This document shows positions 2,626 through 63,059 of a stretch of 64,000 nt of DNA, piece after piece (the stretch's first letter is position 1; every line of letters starts with the position of its first letter). The stretch is taken from positions 37,901-101,900 of the forward strand of contig JARGFZ010000005.1 of NCBI GenBank assembly GCA_029210965.1, read 5' to 3'. The position numbers were made by a program, and so were the translations under genes. Below the pieces are notes generated by a model that did not search any database, was not told the origin of the DNA, and saw only the letters and a list, made by a program, of their open reading frames with translations. This DNA comes from a bacterium (GTDB lineage: Bacteria; BMS3Abin14).

Positions 2626-2707
2626 TGTCGACTTTAAATAGCGGAAGGGGGAGCCGCTTGCGCGACCCCCCCTCCCGTCCCTGAGACGGCCAGGAAACTA
2701 TTGTAAT

Positions 2708-2835
2708 GGTCGCGACAGTCCGTGCGGGACTCTCGCTCTACGGAAACCGAAAAGCGTGGTTTCCGGTTTCCTCACGGATCAATGAGATCCCTTTCAATCA
2801 TTGATCCGGGCGCCTTTCCCGGGCGCGGTGACGAT
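2708..2835 (+). repeat. multi-hairpin dispersed element, diverged copy (C)
   Basis: Aligns module by module with 42722-42872: GTCGCGACAGTCC.., GGAAACCG-loop-CGGTTTCC, GGATCAATGA-loop-TCATTGATCC, GCGCC-loop-GGGCGC. Abuts the glnA stop. Confidence 0.75.
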
Positions 2836-2840
2836 ACCCC

Positions 2841-4259
2841 TTAACTATCGAAGTACAGTGCGAACTCGTGAGGATGGGGCCTCATGTTGATTGCGTCCAC
2901 CTCGTTCTCCCTCTTGTAGCTTATCCACATATCGATGAGATCCGGTGTGAATACGTCGCCCTTGAGGAGGAAATCGTGGTCCTTCTCAAGGTGGTCCAGG
3001 GCCTCAGCCAGGGATCCAGGGGCCAAGGGGATATTTGCCATTTCCTCGGGAGACAGCCCGTAGATGTTCTTGTCCAGAGGCTCACCTGGATCGATCCTGT
3101 TCTCGATGCCGTCCAGGCCAGCCATGAGCTGGGCTGCAAATGCCAGGTAACCGTTACATGTCGGGTCAGGGGTCCGATATTCTACTCTTTTAGCCTTCGG
3201 ACTTGCCGAGTACATGGGGAGCCTTATGGCAGCACTTCTGTTGCGAGAGGAATAAACCAGGTTGATGGGTGCCTCGTAACCGGGAACCAGCCGCTTGTAG
3301 GAGTTGGTCGTGGGGTTTGTCAGGGCACACAGGGCCGGAGCGTGCTTCAGTAATCCGCCCATGTAGTGCATTGCCATCTCGCTGATCCCGCCGTACTTGT
3401 CACCTGCGAAGAGGGGTTTGCCGTCTTTCCAGATGCTCTGATGCGTGTGCATCCCGGAGCCGTTGTCCCCAAAAATGGGCTTGGGCATGAAGGTTGCCGT
3501 TTTCCCGTGCTTCCTGGCAACGTTCTTGACCACATACTTGAACCTCATGAGGTTGTCAGCGCACTGGACGAGGGGAGCGTACTTCATGTCGATCTCCGCT
3601 TGCCCGGCGGTGGCCACCTCGTGGTGCTCTGCCTCGATCTCGATCCCGTAAGTATCCTGGAGGATCTGGACCATTTCCATCCTGATGTCGGTCTGGCTGT
3701 CGTTTGGAGGGGCGGGGAAGTAACCGCCGCCGTGCTTGGCCTTGTAACCCAGGTTGGGGCCTTCCTCACTGCCGGTGTTCCAACAGCCCTCCACCGAATC
3801 GATGTAGTAGTACCCCGAGTGAGCGTTCTGGTCGAAACGGATGCCGTCGAAGATAAAGAACTCGGCCTCGGGACCGAAGAAGGCCGTGTCGCCTATCCCC
3901 GTGGACTTAAGGTACACCTCTGCTTTCTGGGCCACGTGACGAGGATCCCTGGAATAGGGCTCCTTGGTGATGGGATCGAAGATGTTGCAGATCATGGACA
4001 TGGTAGGTACATACGTCAGGAAGGGGTCTATCATTACGGTGGACGCATCCGGGATGACCAGCATATCGCTGGCGTGGATGGGCTGCCACCCACGAATAGA
4101 GGAACCATCGAAACCGAACCCCTCTTCAAAGCTGCTCTCCTCAAGCTGTTGGATGGGCACACTGAAGTGCTGCCATGTACCAGGCAGATCCATGAACTTG
4201 AGATCTACCATTTTGATGCCTTTTTCCTTCGCTAATTCCAGTACCGCTTTGGGTGTCAT
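2841..4259 (-). CDS. glnA: glutamine synthetase type I
   Basis: 472 aa. GS-I signatures FDGSSIRGW and [16 protein letters not shown]; adenylylation-loop Tyr context [18 protein letters not shown] before ATG 4259. Confidence 0.95.
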
Positions 4260-5066: not shown

Positions 5067-5540
5067 TCACGGATTTGAAATACCAAGTATCTCCAGTTCG
5101 CGCATACCCCGGGGGATCTGCACCTGGACCACGTCTCCCACAGTCTTTCCAATAAGAGCCCTGGCGACGGGAGAGCTTATGCTGATGCGCTGTTCTGCGA
5201 TATCCGCCTCGTCCATGCCCACGATCTGATAGGAGATCTCTTCACCCGAATCCAGGTCCTGAACCGTTACCTGCAGACCGAACACGACCCTTTCTGTGCT
5301 CATGGCAGCGGGGTCCACAACATCGGCATTGGCGATCTTGTTCGCATGATCACGGATCTTCCTCTCAAGAAAAGCCTGATGCTCCTTGGCGGCGTCGTAC
5401 TCGGCGTTCTCTGATATATCCCCGTGCCCCCTGGCTACGGCGATGGCTTCGATCACCTTCGGACGCTCAACCGACTTTAGCCTCTTGAGTTCCTCCTGGA
5501 GTTTCTTTAATCCACCTGGGGTGATGGGGTACTTGGACAT
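5067..5540 (-). CDS. greA: transcription elongation factor GreA
   Basis: 157 aa. MSKYPITPGGLKKLQEELKRLK..AEYDAAKE. GreA/GreB coiled-coil plus C-terminal domain. Confidence 0.93.
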   Translation of the reverse strand: MSKYPITPGGLKKLQEELKRLKSVERPKVIEAIAVARGHGDISENAEYDAAKEHQAFLERKIRDHANKIANADVVDPAAMSTERVVFGLQVTVQDLDSGEEISYQIVGMDEADIAEQRISISSPVARALIGKTVGDVVQVQIPRGMRELEILGISNP

Positions 5541-5666
5541 GAATTTTACTCTCCTGATTTATGATGACTACCCTAATAGGCCAAAAAAAAAGCAACCACC
5601 TGCACACTGCACAGGTGGAAACATAAAATAGTAGATACCCCGAAACTACCGAAATGTCAACTGTTT

Positions 5667-13073: not shown

Positions 13074-13151
13074 TGGCGTCCCCAACGGGATTTGAACCCG
13101 TGTCGCCGACGTGAAAGGCCGGTGTCCTGGGCCGGGCTAGACGATGGGGAC
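13074..13151 (-). tRNA. tRNA-Glu (anticodon UUC), CCA encoded
   Basis: Reverse complement GTCCCCATCGTCTAGCCCGG..CCGGCCTTTCACGTCGG..GGGTTCAAATCCCGTTGGGGACGCCA folds as a cloverleaf with anticodon loop CTTTCAC. Confidence 0.93.
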
Positions 13152-13231: not shown

Positions 13232-13307
13232 GGTGAGCCAGGAAGGATTCGAACCTTCGACCATCTGATTAAAAGTCAGGTGCTCTACCTGGCTGAGCTA
13301 CTGGCTC
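13231..13307 (-). tRNA. tRNA-Lys (anticodon UUU), CCA encoded
   Basis: Reverse complement GAGCCAGTAGCTCAGCCAGGTAGAGCACCTGACTTTTAATCAGATGGTCGAAGGTTCGAATCCTTCCTGGCTCACCA. Anticodon loop CTTTTAA. Confidence 0.92.
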
Positions 13308-25526: not shown

Positions 25527-25694
25527 TGTTGGATTCCGGATCCTCGTTTTCCGTCGTCGTCCTTCGATTCAACTCAGGACTATGCCGCGACAAGCTACTC
25601 GGCCCGGAAGGACGGAGGAGTGTTTGGGGTTTTCCTTATCCCCTTTACTCCCTTCATCCCTGTTAAACTCGCCTTTATGTTTTGCTTTTGAATG

Positions 25695-25750
25695 TTGATA
25701 GAGTCGCAAAAAATCCAATCCGGGACTTTTTGCGAAGTCATCAATGTTGA
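25695..25750 (+). repeat. short version of the multi-hairpin element (terminal hairpins only)
   Basis: TTGATAGAGTCGCAAAAAATCC-AATCC-GGGACTTTTTGCGAAGTCATCAATGTTG. Confidence 0.7.
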
Positions 25751-37556: not shown

Positions 37557-37853
37557 CCCCCACCCCGGTCCCGCCGACGGCAGGACTGCTTGATGGACTT
37601 TTTTTAAATCCATCAACTTTGGATCAAATCATAATTTGACAATCAGGAATTGTATTGGTGGCAGGAAGATAAGTCAAGAACGCGAAATCCATCGTGAAAA
37701 ACTGTTCAATAAATATGTGCACACTGAATTTCGCGTATGAAGGTAGCTTAGAACCATGAGATGCGGATGGGAGACACCTCAGGAAAGGAAAACAGTACTT
37801 TGACCATTAATTTCCCAGATAAATAAATCCCGGGGCTCTACCACGGGATTTAT

Positions 37854-38651: not shown

Positions 38652-38780
38652 CCTAACCTCAAAATCATGGCGTTCGATACTTTTCTGTTATAAAAAACGG
38701 GGATGCCCCTCCAGGAGGGGGGGCAAACCAGAGGAGCATCCCCTTTCCCATCGCTGGGAACCTTAAGATTATCAGTCAGT

Positions 38781-39380: not shown

Positions 39381-39468
39381 TAATCTAATCTCAGATCCAA
39401 GATCTCAAATCTCAAAAAAGCTTCTGCACAGCATCTCTGAGATTTGCGATTTGCGATTTGAGGTTGAG
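39381..39468. repeat. inverted heptamer arrays (AGATCTC/AAATCTC versus GCGATTT)
   Basis: TAATCTAATCTCAGATCCAAGATCTCAAATCTCAAA ... CTCTGAGATTTGCGATTTGCGATTTGAGGTTGAG. Confidence 0.8.
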
Positions 39469-39480
39469 TTTATAGTTGGT

Positions 39481-39627
39481 GGACTCGTAAAAAGTCCATC
39501 ACCGCGCCCCCGTTTGGGGCGCCCGAATCAATGGCGTGGTATATGAGTCATTGATTCGTGAGGAAAGGGGAAACGACGCTTTTCACTTTCCGACGAGCAA
39601 AAAGCCGATAACGGACTTTTTGCGACC
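39481..39627 (-). repeat. multi-hairpin dispersed element, full copy (B), reverse orientation
   Basis: Its reverse complement aligns end to end with 42722-42872: GGGTCGCAAAAAGTCC..GGCTTTTTGCTCGTCGGAAAGTGAAAAGCGTCGTTTCCCCTTTCCTCACGAATCAATGAC..CCATTGATTCGGGCGCCCCAAACGGGGGCGCGGTGATGGACTTTTTACGAGTCC. Confidence 0.85.
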
Positions 39628-39636
39628 CTGTCATAG

Positions 39637-39936
39637 TTAGCTGTACTCAATATACTCCGTAAAAATTTTGCATCCCAGAACCTGGGCAAGACTGCAAAGG
39701 TAGTCTTCCACATCGCCCAGGTCGCAGTCCTTGGTCACCACCTCAAGTGTTTTCCCGTCTATGGCAAAATACACCGTTGGAAAGCCCCAGCTATCCGGGC
39801 TGAACCTGGCTCCCCGCTCGCCCAAAAGGGTGTAAGTACCAGGTTTATCACTCCATGCTTCCAGTTTGGTTTTGATCTCGTCCAATTTCTGCTCTTTTTC
39901 AAATTCACATATTTTGTAACTAAAGTCATCGTACAT
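39637..39936 (-). CDS. hypothetical protein (99 aa, no recognised family)
   Basis: ATG 39936 with a purine-rich upstream tract. Acidic, no signal peptide or TM segment. The stop abuts the repeat element. Confidence 0.5.
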   Translation of the reverse strand: MYDDFSYKICEFEKEQKLDEIKTKLEAWSDKPGTYTLLGERGARFSPDSWGFPTVYFAIDGKTLEVVTKDCDLGDVEDYLCSLAQVLGCKIFTEYIEYS

Positions 39937-41077: not shown

Positions 41078-42232
41078 TTACAGAGGCCTGGCCAGACCAG
41101 GCTTGTAGCCATACGTAGAATCGGCACGAAGTTCGAAGAGCCTCTGGAGACCTTTTGTCCCGGTGATCGTGGGGTAGCCGTCACCCGGGCGCGTGGACAG
41201 GAAGGTCCACTCGTCTTCCATGACCCAGTCTTTAATGTATTTGTTGACCTCGGCCTTTTCCTTCCGGTTGACCTGAGTGTAGGCTCTCCAGAAATCCCAG
41301 TCGTAGTCGTAGTAATACGGGACCTGGCCGGGGAAACCGCCGTAGGGCACTTCGACGATGGCGTCGATATACTGCATGGCGATGGTGTTGGAATACGGCT
41401 GAGCGCGGAGCTCTTCTTCCGTAACAACCTTCTCAGTCTGAACAACGCAGTACTTGGCTGAAATAGCCTGCTCGGCGTCAGGTCCCAGGATACCTTCGAT
41501 CCGGGTAGTACCTTTCTCGCCGACCCTCTGGGCGAGGATGATGGTCACCTCGGGAAGGATGGGCGGAACCAGGATAACCTTGACACCCTTGTTGCCGGTG
41601 TAGGCGGTTGACTCGCGGATCAGATCGAGAGCGTTGGTCTTGTTGGAAGTACCGTCGCCGTCTTCAAAGGCATGGGGGCGCAGGCCCCACCCGTCGAATG
41701 GATCTTCGATGACTGCCATTCGATGGGGAGCGACGGATGGATGGATCCAGGACCCATCGGCCTTCTTGCCGCGGAGGCCCATTTTCTTGAAGGTGTCATT
41801 ATCCATCATGCTGGTCCCGAACTCCGACATACAGGGAGCGAAGGGCCAGCCGTAGCGTCCCGCCACCGTCCGGAGACCGTAGCCGTAGTTGGAGTAATCC
41901 TCTACGTCGATGGTGCCGTCCTGAATGGAGCGGCGGACACTGTATGCCACCGGCTGGATGCCTTCCAGTCCGATATACGTCGTGTCCAGAAGTTTAACCA
42001 GTCCGGCTGCGGCCCAGAACTCACAAATGGAGGCACCGCCGTTCATGGTAACGAAAAGGTCCTTGATATCCTGACGGATCACCTCACGTGCCAGCGCCAT
42101 TGGCTTCTTGGTATAGCTGAAGCCGCCGGGGCAGATGCAGGTTCCCTTCTTGACGAAGGTCTTGACCGCATCAGAGAGGGACATGATCTTGTCTTTTCCC
42201 CTCATAAAAGTGGGGATAGTCGCCTCTGCCAT
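41078..42232 (-). CDS. CoA-transferase subunit A (glutaconate CoA-transferase-like)
   Basis: 384 aa. KIMSLSDAVKTFVKKGTCICPGGF..PMALAREVIRQDIKDL. Paired with subunit B. Confidence 0.8.
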   Translation of the reverse strand: MAEATIPTFMRGKDKIMSLSDAVKTFVKKGTCICPGGFSYTKKPMALAREVIRQDIKDLFVTMNGGASICEFWAAAGLVKLLDTTYIGLEGIQPVAYSVRRSIQDGTIDVEDYSNYGYGLRTVAGRYGWPFAPCMSEFGTSMMDNDTFKKMGLRGKKADGSWIHPSVAPHRMAVIEDPFDGWGLRPHAFEDGDGTSNKTNALDLIRESTAYTGNKGVKVILVPPILPEVTIILAQRVGEKGTTRIEGILGPDAEQAISAKYCVVQTEKVVTEEELRAQPYSNTIAMQYIDAIVEVPYGGFPGQVPYYYDYDWDFWRAYTQVNRKEKAEVNKYIKDWVMEDEWTFLSTRPGDGYPTITGTKGLQRLFELRADSTYGYKPGLARPL

Positions 42233-42643: not shown

Positions 42644-42721
42644 ATTTACACCTCCTTCCGTTATAGGACTTTTTGTTTTTCATTCAGTGTGCTGATTCGA
42701 GCATCAATCTATTTGTTAATA

Positions 42722-42872
42722 GAGTCGCAAAAAGTCCATTCGCGGCTTTTTGCTCCACGGAAAACGAAAAGTGTCATTTCCGTTTTCCCTACAAATCAAT
42801 GACTGACATTGCTGGTCATTGATTTGGGCGCCCCACTGGAGCGCGTTGATGACTTTTTACGAAGTCATCAAC
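42722..42872 (+). repeat. multi-hairpin dispersed element, reference full copy (A)
   Basis: Five consecutive hairpins: GCAAAAAGTCC/GGCTTTTTGC; GGAAAACG/CGTTTTCC; AAATCAATGAC/GTCATTGATTT; GCGCCCC/GGAGCGC; TTGATGACTT/AAGTCATCAA. Lies in the spacer between the ligase gene and the 122-aa ORF. Confidence 0.88.
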
Positions 42873-42881
42873 GCTCTGATA

Positions 42882-44255
42882 TTACTTCTTGCGCCTGTCA
42901 TCAACACGGGCGCTGGCAGTCTTTCCCTCTCCGGATGTGGCACGGGGCAGCTCGTCGGGACCGATCAGATCCACGACCTTGGGGTTCACATCGGTGACAC
43001 CCTTGACAGCGTTCTTCATCTCGACCTTCAAGCGGTCCACAAGGGCGCTGTCGCTGAGGAACGCTTTGTCCTTGAGCTCGATCCTCAGGGTGAAAAAGTC
43101 CATGCCCCTTTTGTCGGTCTCGACGACGATACGGAAGTTGGCCCCCATCTCGGGGAAGGGCGACAGAGCCTCTTCAACCTGGCTCGGGAAAACAATGAGG
43201 CCGGAGATGGACACGGCGTCATCGGAGCGCCCCTTGATGGCCGCCATCCTGGGATGGGTCCTGCCACAGGCACAGACTTTCCAGGTCAGGGATGCAAGGT
43301 CCCGGCTCCTGTAGCGGATGAGAGGGGTCCCCGTGTTAACCAGGTTGGTCCACACCATTTCCCCATCCTCGCCGTCGCCCACAGGCTCCCCGGTATCAGG
43401 GTTGATGCACTCAGCCAGGAGGTGATCGGCCCAGGCGTGCATCTTCTGTGGCATATCCTCCGTACGTGCTTCACACTCACAGGTCATGCCGGGCCCGAGA
43501 AACTCGGTCATACCGAATTCATCAAAGGCCTTGACGCCAAACAGTTCTTCGATCTTGACGCGGGTGGCCCAGGGCCAAGGCTCGGCACCGTGAAGGCTGA
43601 CCTTGCATGTGGAGTCCTTGGCCAGATCAAAACCCTTCTCCTGAGCCTTCTGTCCAACGTAAAGGGCGAAGGACGGTGTGGCGCAGAATGAATGAACCGG
43701 CAGGTCCACCAGGATGTCTACCATTCGGTCCGACTGGCCGCCGGACAGCGGTATGGGTGCGGCGCCCATTCTCTGCGCGCCGTAATGGAATCCGAAACCG
43801 CCTGTGGGAAGCCCGTACCCGAAGGAGTTCAGGAAGATGTCTCCCGGGCGGGCACCAACCATCCAGAGCTCCCGGGCGTTCCGGTCGGCCCACAGGTCGA
43901 TATCGTGCTCGTTGGCAAAGATGAGAACCGGCTTACCTGTGGTTCCGGATGTACTGTGCATCTCCCTCATCTCAGACATGTCGCCTGTGACGATCTTTGT
44001 GGGATAACCGTCCCGGATGGTCCCCTTCTCCATGAAAGGCACCTTGCTGATGTCGTCAAGGGTCTTCAGGTCGCTCGGGTTAAAACCGGCGTCATCGTAG
44101 ACCTTCTTGAAATAAGGGTTCGTGTTATAAATGTAGCTTACCTGTTTTTTAAGGAGATCAAGCTGAAGCTTCTTGAGCTTCTCGACCGGCATGGTCTCGA
44201 TCTCTGGCTGAAAGTATGGGCTCTTAGGATCCTGAGTTCTCGTTTTGACCTGCAT
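42882..44255 (-). CDS. phenylacetate-CoA ligase family enzyme (PaaK-like), copy 2
   Basis: 457 aa from MQVKTRTQDPKSPYFQPEIETMPVEKLKKLQLDLLKKQV..FYKKVY, with GGAGGAG RBS. Same architecture as copy 1. Confidence 0.85.
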   Translation of the reverse strand: MQVKTRTQDPKSPYFQPEIETMPVEKLKKLQLDLLKKQVSYIYNTNPYFKKVYDDAGFNPSDLKTLDDISKVPFMEKGTIRDGYPTKIVTGDMSEMREMHSTSGTTGKPVLIFANEHDIDLWADRNARELWMVGARPGDIFLNSFGYGLPTGGFGFHYGAQRMGAAPIPLSGGQSDRMVDILVDLPVHSFCATPSFALYVGQKAQEKGFDLAKDSTCKVSLHGAEPWPWATRVKIEELFGVKAFDEFGMTEFLGPGMTCECEARTEDMPQKMHAWADHLLAECINPDTGEPVGDGEDGEMVWTNLVNTGTPLIRYRSRDLASLTWKVCACGRTHPRMAAIKGRSDDAVSISGLIVFPSQVEEALSPFPEMGANFRIVVETDKRGMDFFTLRIELKDKAFLSDSALVDRLKVEMKNAVKGVTDVNPKVVDLIGPDELPRATSGEGKTASARVDDRRKK

Positions 44256-50098: not shown

Positions 50099-50113
50099 AT
50101 ACTCTCCTAATCA

Positions 50114-50157
50114 GGGTCGCAAAAAGTCCGTTCGTGACTTTTTGCCAAATCATCACC
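50114..50157 (+). repeat. short version of the multi-hairpin element
   Basis: GGGTCGCAAAAAGTCC-GTTCGT-GACTTTTTGCCAAATCATCACC. Intercistronic, between meaB and the hydratase gene. Confidence 0.7.
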
Positions 50158-62690: not shown

Positions 62691-63059
62691 ATGAAAAAAA
62701 TCCTGGTCGTTGAGGATTCGGTCCTCGTTCAAAGAATCATCCAGGACGCTTTGGAAATCAATTTTCCCTGTATCATCATGGGAGTGGAGAATGGCGCCAG
62801 GGCCTATGAAGAGTTGAAGGTCAACACTTATGATCTGGTGGTCACAGACATCGTGATGCCGATCATGGGCGGCCTGATCCTGGCGGAGAAGATCCGGGTT
62901 GATTTGGCATCCGACGTTCCCATCATCATGCTCACTTCACTGGGTGTTAAAAATGTCCGGGACTTTTCGCTCCACGGAAAGGGAAAAGCATCGTTTTCCC
63001 TTTCCTTACAAATTGATGATTTTTTGCAAAGTCATCAACAGTTAACGGTTAACTTATAG
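62691..63059 (+). CDS. CheY-like receiver domain protein, 3' end replaced by a repeat element (probably truncated)
   Basis: MKKILVVEDS.., phospho-acceptor context LVVTDIVMP, ..IIMLTS. From about codon 89 the ORF is encoded by element copy D. The conserved Lys (KP) region and helix 5 are missing. Confidence 0.65.
   Translation: MKKILVVEDSVLVQRIIQDALEINFPCIIMGVENGARAYEELKVNTYDLVVTDIVMPIMGGLILAEKIRVDLASDVPIIMLTSLGVKNVRDFSLHGKGKASFSLSLQIDDFLQSHQQLTVNL
62957..63040 (+). repeat. multi-hairpin dispersed element, copy D (lacks the two central hairpins)
   Basis: TCCGGGACTTTTCGCTCCACGGAAAGGGAAAAGCATCGTTTTCCCTTTCCTTACAAATTGATGATTTTTTGCAAAGTCATCAAC. Confidence 0.8.

Follow-up and report, generated by a model that had tools for sequence, protein, structure and literature searches.

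What is the hairpin-rich sequence that recurs along a contig of the bacterial lineage BMS3Abin14, and why do its hairpins stay paired while their bases change? The DNA that we analysed, called the window below, is the whole 64,000-nucleotide stretch from 37,901 to 101,900 of contig JARGFZ010000005.1, and a full-length copy of the element lies at 42.7 kb in it. A preliminary description made from the window had reported a dispersed family of five-hairpin elements, likened to MITEs and BIMEs (miniature inverted-repeat transposable elements and bacterial interspersed mosaic elements), and had read compensatory changes between copies as selection on RNA or single-stranded DNA structure. Our analysis indicates that the element is very probably a MITE, a non-autonomous transposon of about 153 bp that carries the ends of a DDE insertion sequence and is moved in trans by the transposase of that insertion sequence. 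It is a new family of a well-known kind of element, not a new kind of system.

Terminal inverted repeats and target-site duplications

The element runs from GAT to ATC over about 153 bp (full copies 153-159 bp, minimal copies 46 bp), has no coding capacity and is filled by the five hairpins. Both termini are 19-bp inverted repeats with the consensus GATRNNNTCGYAAAAAGTC. The left end reads TTGATAGGGTCGYAAAAAGTC and the reverse complement of the right end TTGATGACTTCGYAAAAAGTC; GATRGGGTCGYAAAAAGTC at the left end matches GATGACTTCGYAAAAAGTC in the reverse complement of the right one. Among the copies shown, the two ends of any one copy have 15-17 of 19 positions in common; within the window the figures are 15/19 (42.7-kb copy) and 13/19 (39.5-kb copy). 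An imperfect terminal inverted repeat had been described before; it is present, but its limits were wrong, the element being slightly longer and the repeat 19 bp. The outer TT and AA of 'TTGAT...ATCAA', formerly counted as element sequence, belong to the target-site duplication instead.

A search for such duplications, suggested in the preliminary description, was rewarding. Exact direct repeats of 6-7 bp stand on both sides of 18 of 51 five-hairpin copies (1.4 +/- 1.1 expected), and 28 of the 51 carry a duplication with at most one mismatch (7.2 expected). The duplication has the consensus AANNTT, with examples such as ATATCA, AGTAAA, ATCATT, AACTTT and AATGGTT, and tandem copies are parted by one 6-bp duplication unit. 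Its boundary was set by an offset scan, in which the repeat takes in the TT of TTGAT and the AA of ATCAA. The same scan superseded a 2-bp flanking repeat (22/53 copies, 5.2 expected) that had suggested an IS30-like element, the repeat being longer. Because the inverted repeats are combined with target-site duplications, the element is a DDE-type transposon and not a derivative of REP (repetitive extragenic palindromic) or IS200/IS605 elements. The label MITE/BIME-like is supported in part: this is a dispersed MITE-like family with a fixed module order, internally deleted variants and copies in both orientations, but it is not of the REP/BIME type.

The remark that the family was not recognisable as a described one agrees with our searches. 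Across the whole window, Rfam 15 gave no family at gathering thresholds apart from two tRNAs, and for positions 42650-42950 at E <= 10 the best match reached 16 bits against a 44-bit threshold. A distant-mode BLAST of the element against PLSDB plasmids and INPHARED phages returned no match, and neither this MITE nor its partner insertion sequence turned up in the literature searched.

An insertion sequence with the same ends

The partner came from a scan of metagenomes, made with a pattern in which the end sequence is followed by a mask excluding every known five-hairpin context. It is a 1.88-kb insertion sequence with a single open reading frame (ORF) for a transposase (Table 1). Further copies were found in loci L122, L148 and L241-L244, and other copies are flanked by the duplications AAGTTT (L245) and AACTTT (L253); all of these, like that of L210, end in GATRNNNTCGYAAAAAGTC. 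The transposases of L122 and L148 share 62-65% amino-acid identity with the L210 type, and the contigs of the protein matches P0028, P0115, P0027 and P0053 bear the same ends. A protein search retrieved more than 5,200 clusters at E <= 1e-10, mostly on contigs of about 2 kb. The few named clusters are called only 'transposase' and come from metagenome-assembled genomes (MAGs) of Deltaproteobacteria, Gammaproteobacteria, Pseudomonadota and Desulfosarcina.

The 536-aa transposase matches the Pfam domains DUF772, DDE_Tnp_1_6 and DDE_Tnp_1 (E 8e-10, 1.5e-16 and 5.5e-07), all above gathering scores. Its best NCBIfam model is IS1182 (NF033551), aligned over model positions 40-485 of 488. The enzyme thus appears to be an IS1182/IS5-like DDE transposase, whose family placement is discussed below.

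The insertion sequence and the five-hairpin MITE have only their ends in common, so the interior of the MITE is an unrelated three-hairpin cassette, not the remnant of a deleted insertion sequence: hairpins 2-4 are cargo with no counterpart in the parent insertion sequence. As the MITE carries the ends of the insertion sequence, it is evidently moved by the transposase of that element. Going by the shared ends and shared duplications, the enzyme, supplied in trans, would bind both ends; insertion would target AT-rich, roughly palindromic AANNTT sites and duplicate 6-7 bp. Copies survive mainly in intergenic spacers, often touching stop codons, and decay by internal deletion.

Insertion polymorphism among relatives

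Syntenic loci were fetched through homologues of the CoA-transferase gene at 41078-42232, and three spacers were compared between the window and five relatives (L107, L053, L248/L249, L250/L251 and L252). BMS3Abin14, PFL40 and SZUA-204 are hydrothermal and sediment MAGs, and the host of the window appears to be of their lineage. Over 3.3 kb, L107 ('bacterium PFL40') shares 87% identity with the window, and it has the same copy at the same place, 42.7 kb. Elsewhere the spacers are filled, empty, occupied by remnants or filled in the reverse orientation (Table 1), and we therefore conclude that insertion and decay occurred repeatedly and independently. Presence and absence at orthologous sites, by which MITEs are recognised, was found at all three spacers.

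Several side observations were made in these loci. L252 ('Deltaproteobacteria bacterium', 13 kb, syntenic with 35-48 kb of the window) holds at least five copies or remnants, and in L250 one spacer (5299-5584) contains two tandem partial copies. The spacer of the 39.5-kb copy also has a tandem repeat of GATTTGC (about three units, 39441-39462) and GAGATYT-type repeats (39385-39462); the orthologous spacer of L248 has other short tandem repeats (CCTGGTGCCTAGTGC...). Just after the TPR gene, at 38691-38763 (minus-strand reading), a run of T comes behind a long hairpin rich in GC, GGGGATGC..CCTCC / GGAGGGGCATCCCC. The hairpin also occurs in L248, L250, L252 and L053, where it is far better conserved than the spacer around it. 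Rfam gave nothing for it; by its appearance it is an intrinsic terminator or else a conserved RNA of small size.

Copies in the window

The window holds four long copies, two minimal copies and one solo end (Table 1). All seven copies of the preliminary description exist where it had placed them, as judged from reading of the sequence, nhmmer and a covariance model. An nhmmer profile built from the four long copies returned exactly these four in the window (E 1e-36 to 6e-21). The covariance model, run with no filters, scored the long copies as listed in Table 1 and matched the short versions at 25695 and 50108 weakly. The end core TCGYAAAAAGTC, with at most one mismatch, occurs 10 times in the window (0.5 expected).

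Table 1. Positions of the element, its parts, and related features. Positions refer to the window unless a locus (L number) is named; loci L001-L120 come from the genome scan and L121-L240 from the metagenome scan.
Feature	Position or locus	Strand	Details	Evidence
Full-length five-hairpin copy (42.7 kb)	42718..42869	+		covariance model 163 bits, fold, sequence
42.7-kb copy, left inverted repeat	42718-42736
42.7-kb copy, hairpin 1	42727-42753
42.7-kb copy, hairpin 2	42759-42788
42.7-kb copy, hairpin 3	42792-42826
42.7-kb copy, hairpin 4	42828-42844
42.7-kb copy, hairpin 5	42846-42871
42.7-kb copy, right inverted repeat	42851-42869
Full-length copy (39.5 kb)	39478..39632	-	exact 6-bp duplication AACTAT at 39633-39638 and 39472-39477	covariance model 136 bits, sequence
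Degenerate copy (2.7 kb)	2702..2842	+	hairpins 1-4, right end decayed; probable duplication AACTAT at 2696-2701 and 2843-2848	covariance model 85 bits, sequence
Copy without hairpins 3 and 4 (62.9 kb)	62936..63038	+	left end decayed	covariance model 57 bits, sequence
Minimal 46-bp copy (25.7 kb)	25697..25742	+	left inverted repeat, short loop, right inverted repeat; exact 6-bp duplication AATGTT at 25691-25696 and 25743-25748	sequence, end cores on both strands, 16.7 bits
Minimal copy (50.1 kb)	50110..50154	+	outer ends decayed, no intact duplication	sequence, inverted-repeat cores, 15.5 bits
Solo hairpin 5	37590..37616	+	right-end remnant (TTGATGGACTTTTTTTAAATCCATCAA)	sequence, weak covariance-model matches
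42.7-kb spacer	AMP-ligase / 121-aa gene		window, full copy; PFL40 (L107), full copy; L250, two tandem partial copies; L252, left-end remnant; BMS3Abin14 (L248, L249), nothing, spacer 66 bp
39.5-kb spacer	99-aa gene / TPR gene		window, full copy, sense; L248, L250, L251, empty; L252, partial copy, opposite orientation; L053, decayed remnant
38.67-kb spacer	TPR gene / IclR gene		window, empty; L248, empty; L252, full copy, exact duplication AATATT; L053, full copy, other orientation
Insertion sequence, 1,882 bp	L210 49-1930		ends GATGATCTCGTAAAAAGTC and GATGGATTCGTAAAAAGTC, duplication AAACTT, one 536-aa ORF
Sister MITEs (examples)	L131 210-341; L133, L144, L147, L163, L164
Class B variant	L005, L012, L017, L022, L065, L080, L086, L114		ends GGNAACCTCTAAAAATGCC
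Class C variant	L023, L042, L068, L074, L094		ends GGAAGCTCTGAACAAGTCC
Class D variant	L055, L088		ends GGCTCTGGATCAACCC

The copies differ in their setting. The one at 42.7 kb is antisense to its flanking minus-strand genes, and the one at 39.5 kb lies in sense orientation between two minus-strand genes. The degenerate copy at 2.7 kb sits between the convergent genes lgt and glnA (named by Pfam), and the second unit of its putative duplication overlaps the glnA stop codon. At 62.9 kb the element provides, in translation, the last ~35 codons and the stop codon of a response-regulator receiver ORF (62691-63059, plus strand). This ORF breaks off after 'PIIMLTSLG' and matches Pfam Response_reg at profile positions 1-82 of 111 only; no continuation is visible downstream. 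The gene was probably truncated by insertion of the element. This copy had been described as lying inside a gene; it does overlap the ORF, but it truncates it and is no harmless resident.

The two tRNA genes of the window (13077-13151 and 13234-13307, minus strand) are parted by an AT-rich spacer (GC 0.29) that gives a weak covariance-model match of 14 bits, probably spurious.

The family in other phyla, sister MITEs and variant ends

To collect further copies, we scanned one genome per species with the hairpin 2 pattern CGGAAANNGAAAAGNNTNNTTTNCNNTTTCC, its two variable positions left free, and obtained at least 120 stretches. Nearly all the matches listed carry the same five modules in the same order. 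Their hosts are MAGs labelled Desulfobacteraceae, Desulfatiglandaceae, Zetaproteobacteria, Gammaproteobacteria, Pseudomonadota, Nitrospirae and Spirochaetales, together with the cultured Mariprofundus erugo P3 and Mariprofundus sp. KV. A covariance model, R1, was built from 52 canonical copies with the ends found in the window (class A). It recovered at least 126 copies in forward orientation from 662 kb of sequence, drawn from MAGs and from a few Mariprofundus cultures, and the search for copies beyond the window that the preliminary description had proposed was thus positive. Antisense matches to R1 score far lower, and the element therefore has a definite polarity.

Hairpin 2 (CGGAAANNGAAAAG..TTTNCNNTTTCC) is nearly invariant across Desulfobacterota, Zetaproteobacteria, Gammaproteobacteria, Nitrospirae-labelled, Spirochaetales-labelled and other MAGs, a breadth that is partly by construction because the genome scan was seeded with this hairpin.

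Class A ends also enclose other cargoes. In the metagenome loci L121-L240 we found 83 short elements of 60-370 bp, here called sister MITEs, with the ends GATGNNNTCGTAAAAAGTC and at least 23 unrelated interior types, mostly built of hairpins (for example the paired hairpins GTCATTCCGGCGAAAGCCGGAATCCAG). As a set independent of the five-hairpin copies, they show the same duplications: 44 of the 83 are flanked by an exact 6-7-bp repeat (1.4 expected). Among the metagenome-scan elements with class A ends, hairpin 2 occurs only in two canonical copies of L202; the sister MITEs are without it.

Conversely, some hairpin 2 matches have the five-hairpin layout with other ends (classes B to D in Table 1), hairpins 1 and 5 being re-formed from each class's own ends. 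R1, built from class A copies only, recovers these variant classes over their full length at 55-84 bits. Classes B and C are flanked by 4-bp duplications (TTAA, TTAT, TTTA or GTAT). Such 4-bp duplications in variants with IS5-type ends imply that a transposase of different specificity is involved. Two histories would fit: an old MITE lineage that followed the IS5/IS1182 transposases as they diverged, or a cassette that passed from one backbone to another.

A hairpin-2-like unit, CGGAAATGGAAAAG...CTTTTCCATTTCC followed by CTCAC/CTCGC, was also seen in a Candidatus Paceibacterota MAG (L047 640-820 and L081 5840-6000), where it sits in a different multi-hairpin repeat without class A ends.

Structure and covariation of the hairpins

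For the 42.7-kb copy, minimum-free-energy folding gives the five hairpins, whether as DNA or as RNA and on both strands (z -6.3 to -8.2 against dinucleotide shuffles), and the fold is equally strong on either strand. The two outer hairpins, 1 and 5, each form where an end repeat base-pairs with an inverted, partial duplicate of itself close by. In hairpin 1, which has a bulged T, the left end is paired with an inverted copy of its own core that comes after it; to hairpin 5 the right end contributes its outer bases, whose partner is an inverted copy lying further inward. RNAalifold favoured pairing of the two ends with each other over the local hairpins 1 and 5, and both arrangements are possible because the ends are inverted repeats.

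Since hairpins 1 and 5 are built from the ends, the 3' arm of hairpin 1 (GGCTTTTTRC) is a direct repeat of part of the right end (GACTTTTTRC). Judging from the sequences, the 25.7-kb and 50.1-kb minimal copies would result from a deletion between these two repeats. The 62.9-kb form with hairpins 1, 2 and 5, also seen in L029 and L037, would likewise come from a deletion with ATCAATGA of hairpin 3 and TTGATGA of hairpin 5 as its endpoints.

The reported covariation of the stems between copies stands, and extends well beyond the window. In a MAFFT alignment of 52 copies, 90.7% of the cells are paired and 20 of 49 pairs changed on both sides, with 131 double-change cells compared to 43.5 +/- 5 in shuffled data; slid controls pair at 35-55%. 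In the 126 model-aligned copies, 91.9% of the cells are paired and 43 of 49 pairs changed on both sides (695 double-change cells against 156 +/- 14 shuffled; slid controls 39-64%). This larger alignment was fitted to the model and is biased towards its structure; the MAFFT alignment is independent and points in the same direction. As an alignment-free check, the open NN/NN positions of hairpin 2 were fully complementary in 78 of 128 pattern matches (about 8 expected), with 11 different complementary dinucleotide pairs.

All five hairpins covary. Hairpin 3 keeps A-ATCAA-NNNN-TT-R while its four middle bases covary, and the consensus for integration host factor (IHF), WATCAANNNNTTR, is found in hairpin 3 of 56 of 126 copies compared to 0.45 in shuffles.

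What maintains the hairpins

With respect to neighbouring genes, 24 copies read in sense with co-directional genes and 18 in antisense, while 14 stand between convergent and 18 between divergent genes (genes in the loci were called with a crude ORF picker); no orientation bias is seen. The earlier statement that copies occur in both orientations relative to transcription is borne out by these counts. Inside the window copies we found no promoter or terminator consensus.

Mismatch counts are equally symmetric. Raw paired-cell counts gave 245 A:C against 94 G:T, an excess that we had taken as a hint of selection on the reverse strand and that is gone once related copies are clustered (67 against 52 at 85% identity, 24 against 26 at 80%). 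Because the difference vanishes after clustering, wobble is not specifically tolerated on either strand. Given that there is neither an orientation bias nor a preference for G:T over A:C, the palindromes look like a DNA-level feature and not a strand-specific RNA. Selection on RNA or single-stranded DNA structure, as first proposed, does not follow from the compensatory changes.

We put at about even the chances that the maintained palindromy acts at the DNA level through synapsis of the ends, which we prefer, or through palindrome-templated repair; this is an interpretation, not a result. Bent or cruciform-prone DNA, with a possible IHF-type site in hairpin 3, would help ends about 150 bp apart to synapse.

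Weighing the alternatives

The element might instead be of the REP/BIME type or an IS200/IS605-derived element (PATE) moved as single-stranded DNA by a Y1 transposase, RAYT or TnpA. Its several hairpins, one at each end, the bulged T of hairpin 1 and a BIME-like mosaic of modules with deletion variants would fit. We had also considered IS200/IS605 because TTGAT is the target of ISDra2 and TCAA the right cleavage site of IS608, and dropped the idea when 6-7-bp duplications were recognised on either side of the element. REP units are imperfect palindromes of about 35 bp with a linked Y1 transposase and without terminal inverted repeats or target duplications. PATEs have subterminal hairpins without inverted repeats, make no duplication and insert on one side only, 3' of a fixed tetra- or pentanucleotide. 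To our knowledge, neither REP elements nor IS200/IS605 make inverted repeats and duplications such as those found here. The five-hairpin element has true 19-bp inverted repeats, its ends being inverted copies of each other, and direct repeats of 6-7 bp on both sides that vary in sequence; the same ends bound an insertion sequence with a DDE transposase. A GTAG-type REP head is absent, and no Y1 transposase occurs in any locus examined. The cognate RAYT or IS200/IS605 TnpA that the preliminary description had suggested is accordingly not supported as the partner, and we regard a Y1-driven element as extremely improbable.

Two further alternatives concern the cassette and its pairing. The compensatory changes could be mutational, intrastrand template switching or repair copying one arm of a quasi-palindrome from the other without any structural function. 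Quasi-palindrome correction is an established mutational mechanism, the stems are near-perfect Watson-Crick and show no preference for G:T above A:C or other mismatches, both strands show the same pattern, and other MITE interiors with the same ends are hairpin pairs too. Template switching leaves unexplained, however, that module order, stem lengths and the sequence of hairpin 2 are fixed across phyla while loops drift, and that ATCAA....TT of hairpin 3 is kept while the four intervening bases vary; we consider it improbable. A shade less likely again is that the cassette of hairpins 2-4, and hairpin 2 in particular, has a function of its own as a structured module, be it an RNA motif or a specific protein-binding site, and rides on MITEs; this would add to the MITE identity of the element and not replace it. 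In its stronger form, which we hold to be equally doubtful, the cassette would be an ancient functional module carried across phyla by at least two backbones (IS1182-like with 6-7-bp and IS5-like with 4-bp TTAA duplications), the MITEs being vehicles and not mere deletion derivatives. Hairpin 2 is kept across several phyla and its two free positions covary; the same layout occurs with IS5-type ends and 4-bp TTAA/TTAT duplications and is found at full length by the class A model; sister MITEs with class A ends are without hairpin 2; and the Paceibacterota MAG has a hairpin-2-like unit in a different repeat. Yet the copies show no orientation bias, no preference for wobble, no Rfam match and no promoter or terminator; they decay and shed the cassette freely; and the seeding of the scan made the universality of hairpin 2 partly a matter of construction.

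Some observations weigh against the reading that we prefer, a MITE moved by the DDE transposase with its hairpins maintained at the DNA level. Strong covariation across phyla and a near-invariant hairpin 2 together exceed the constraint that the interior of a purely parasitic MITE needs, and a function of the cargo is a possibility for that reason. The 42.7-kb copy has no intact target-site duplication (TTTGTT on one side, AACGCT on the other), the orientation counts depend on the crude gene calls mentioned above, and the IHF site is a possible one, a candidate from consensus matches among related sequences only. The transposase scores below the equivalog cut-off of IS1182 model NF033551 (155.6 against 270 bits), and its closest annotated plasmid relatives, ISNpu1 (IS1182-like) and ISAcma45 (IS5-like), share about 26% identity with it. 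Because of this score and this low identity to named IS1182 and IS5 elements, its family placement is tentative.

The transposase and the five-hairpin MITE were also not found together: tblastn with the partner transposase returned none in the window or in L001-L120, and the former statement that the window has no transposase is correct. Looking up clusters of the NCBI transposase matches linked none to a MAG bearing the five-hairpin element. Between distant pairs of ends in L025 and L059 there are only housekeeping genes (pyrF, pyrD, gap and pgk) and no transposase, and none lies behind the lone left end in L063. A 536-aa ORF at the end of L251, examined as a candidate, is a fragment of pyruvate:ferredoxin oxidoreductase. 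Mobilisation is something we infer from ends and duplications.

Significance

The repeat is dense, with 7 copies in the 64-kb window and at least 5 in one 13-kb locus of a relative. Such a repeat breaks assemblies of uncultured sediment and hydrothermal lineages, truncates genes (here a response regulator) and will be mis-called as ORFs or candidate non-coding RNAs. With a defined inverted repeat, duplication and transposase, it can now be annotated. The search also exposes a large unnamed superfamily of insertion sequences and MITEs, which comprises over 5,200 transposase clusters and no fewer than 24 MITE interiors. What stands out is that a five-hairpin layout is conserved across phyla and that one cassette is used again with two types of end repeat. 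The question worth asking is why a parasitic element of 150 bp keeps five hairpins, one of them invariant, across phyla and two end-repeat types; it is directly testable, because cultured Mariprofundus strains carry copies.

Comparison with known systems

The family is closest in kind to the MITEs of the IS5/IS1182 group, with which it shares short, non-coding, multi-copy elements, inverted repeats identical to those of an insertion sequence, the same duplication as that insertion sequence and insertion polymorphism. It differs from them in that its partner transposase is about 26% identical to named elements and below the IS1182 cut-off, and in that its interior is unrelated to the insertion sequence and not a deletion remnant. 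E. coli IS5 (ends GGAAGGTGCGAACAAGTCC) resembles the class C variants, whose ends GGAAGCTCTGAACAAGTCC match it at 16/19 positions and are accompanied by 4-bp TTAA duplications. The class A end of the window, GGGTCGYAAAAAGTCC, looks like a diverged version of the same repeat; the window copies, with class A ends and 6-7-bp duplications, do not have IS5 ends.

The Correia elements of Neisseria (CREE/NEMIS) are MITEs of about 100-155 bp that lie between genes or at gene ends, occur in full and internally deleted forms, contain an interior IHF site and duplicate TA; they are, as far as we know, confined to Neisseria. Compared by description only, they resemble the present family in size, in their internal deletion forms and in the possible IHF site (a motif match in hairpin 3). 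The five-hairpin family differs in duplicating 6-7 bp (AANNTT), in spanning several phyla and in having a candidate partner insertion sequence. BOX elements and BIMEs share with it a fixed order of hairpin modules and variants without internal modules. We know of no terminal inverted repeats or target-site duplications in either, and REP units are linked to RAYT, whereas the five-hairpin element has inverted repeats, duplications and a DDE partner. It is thus a member of none of the Correia, BOX and BIME families, being set apart from the Correia elements by description.

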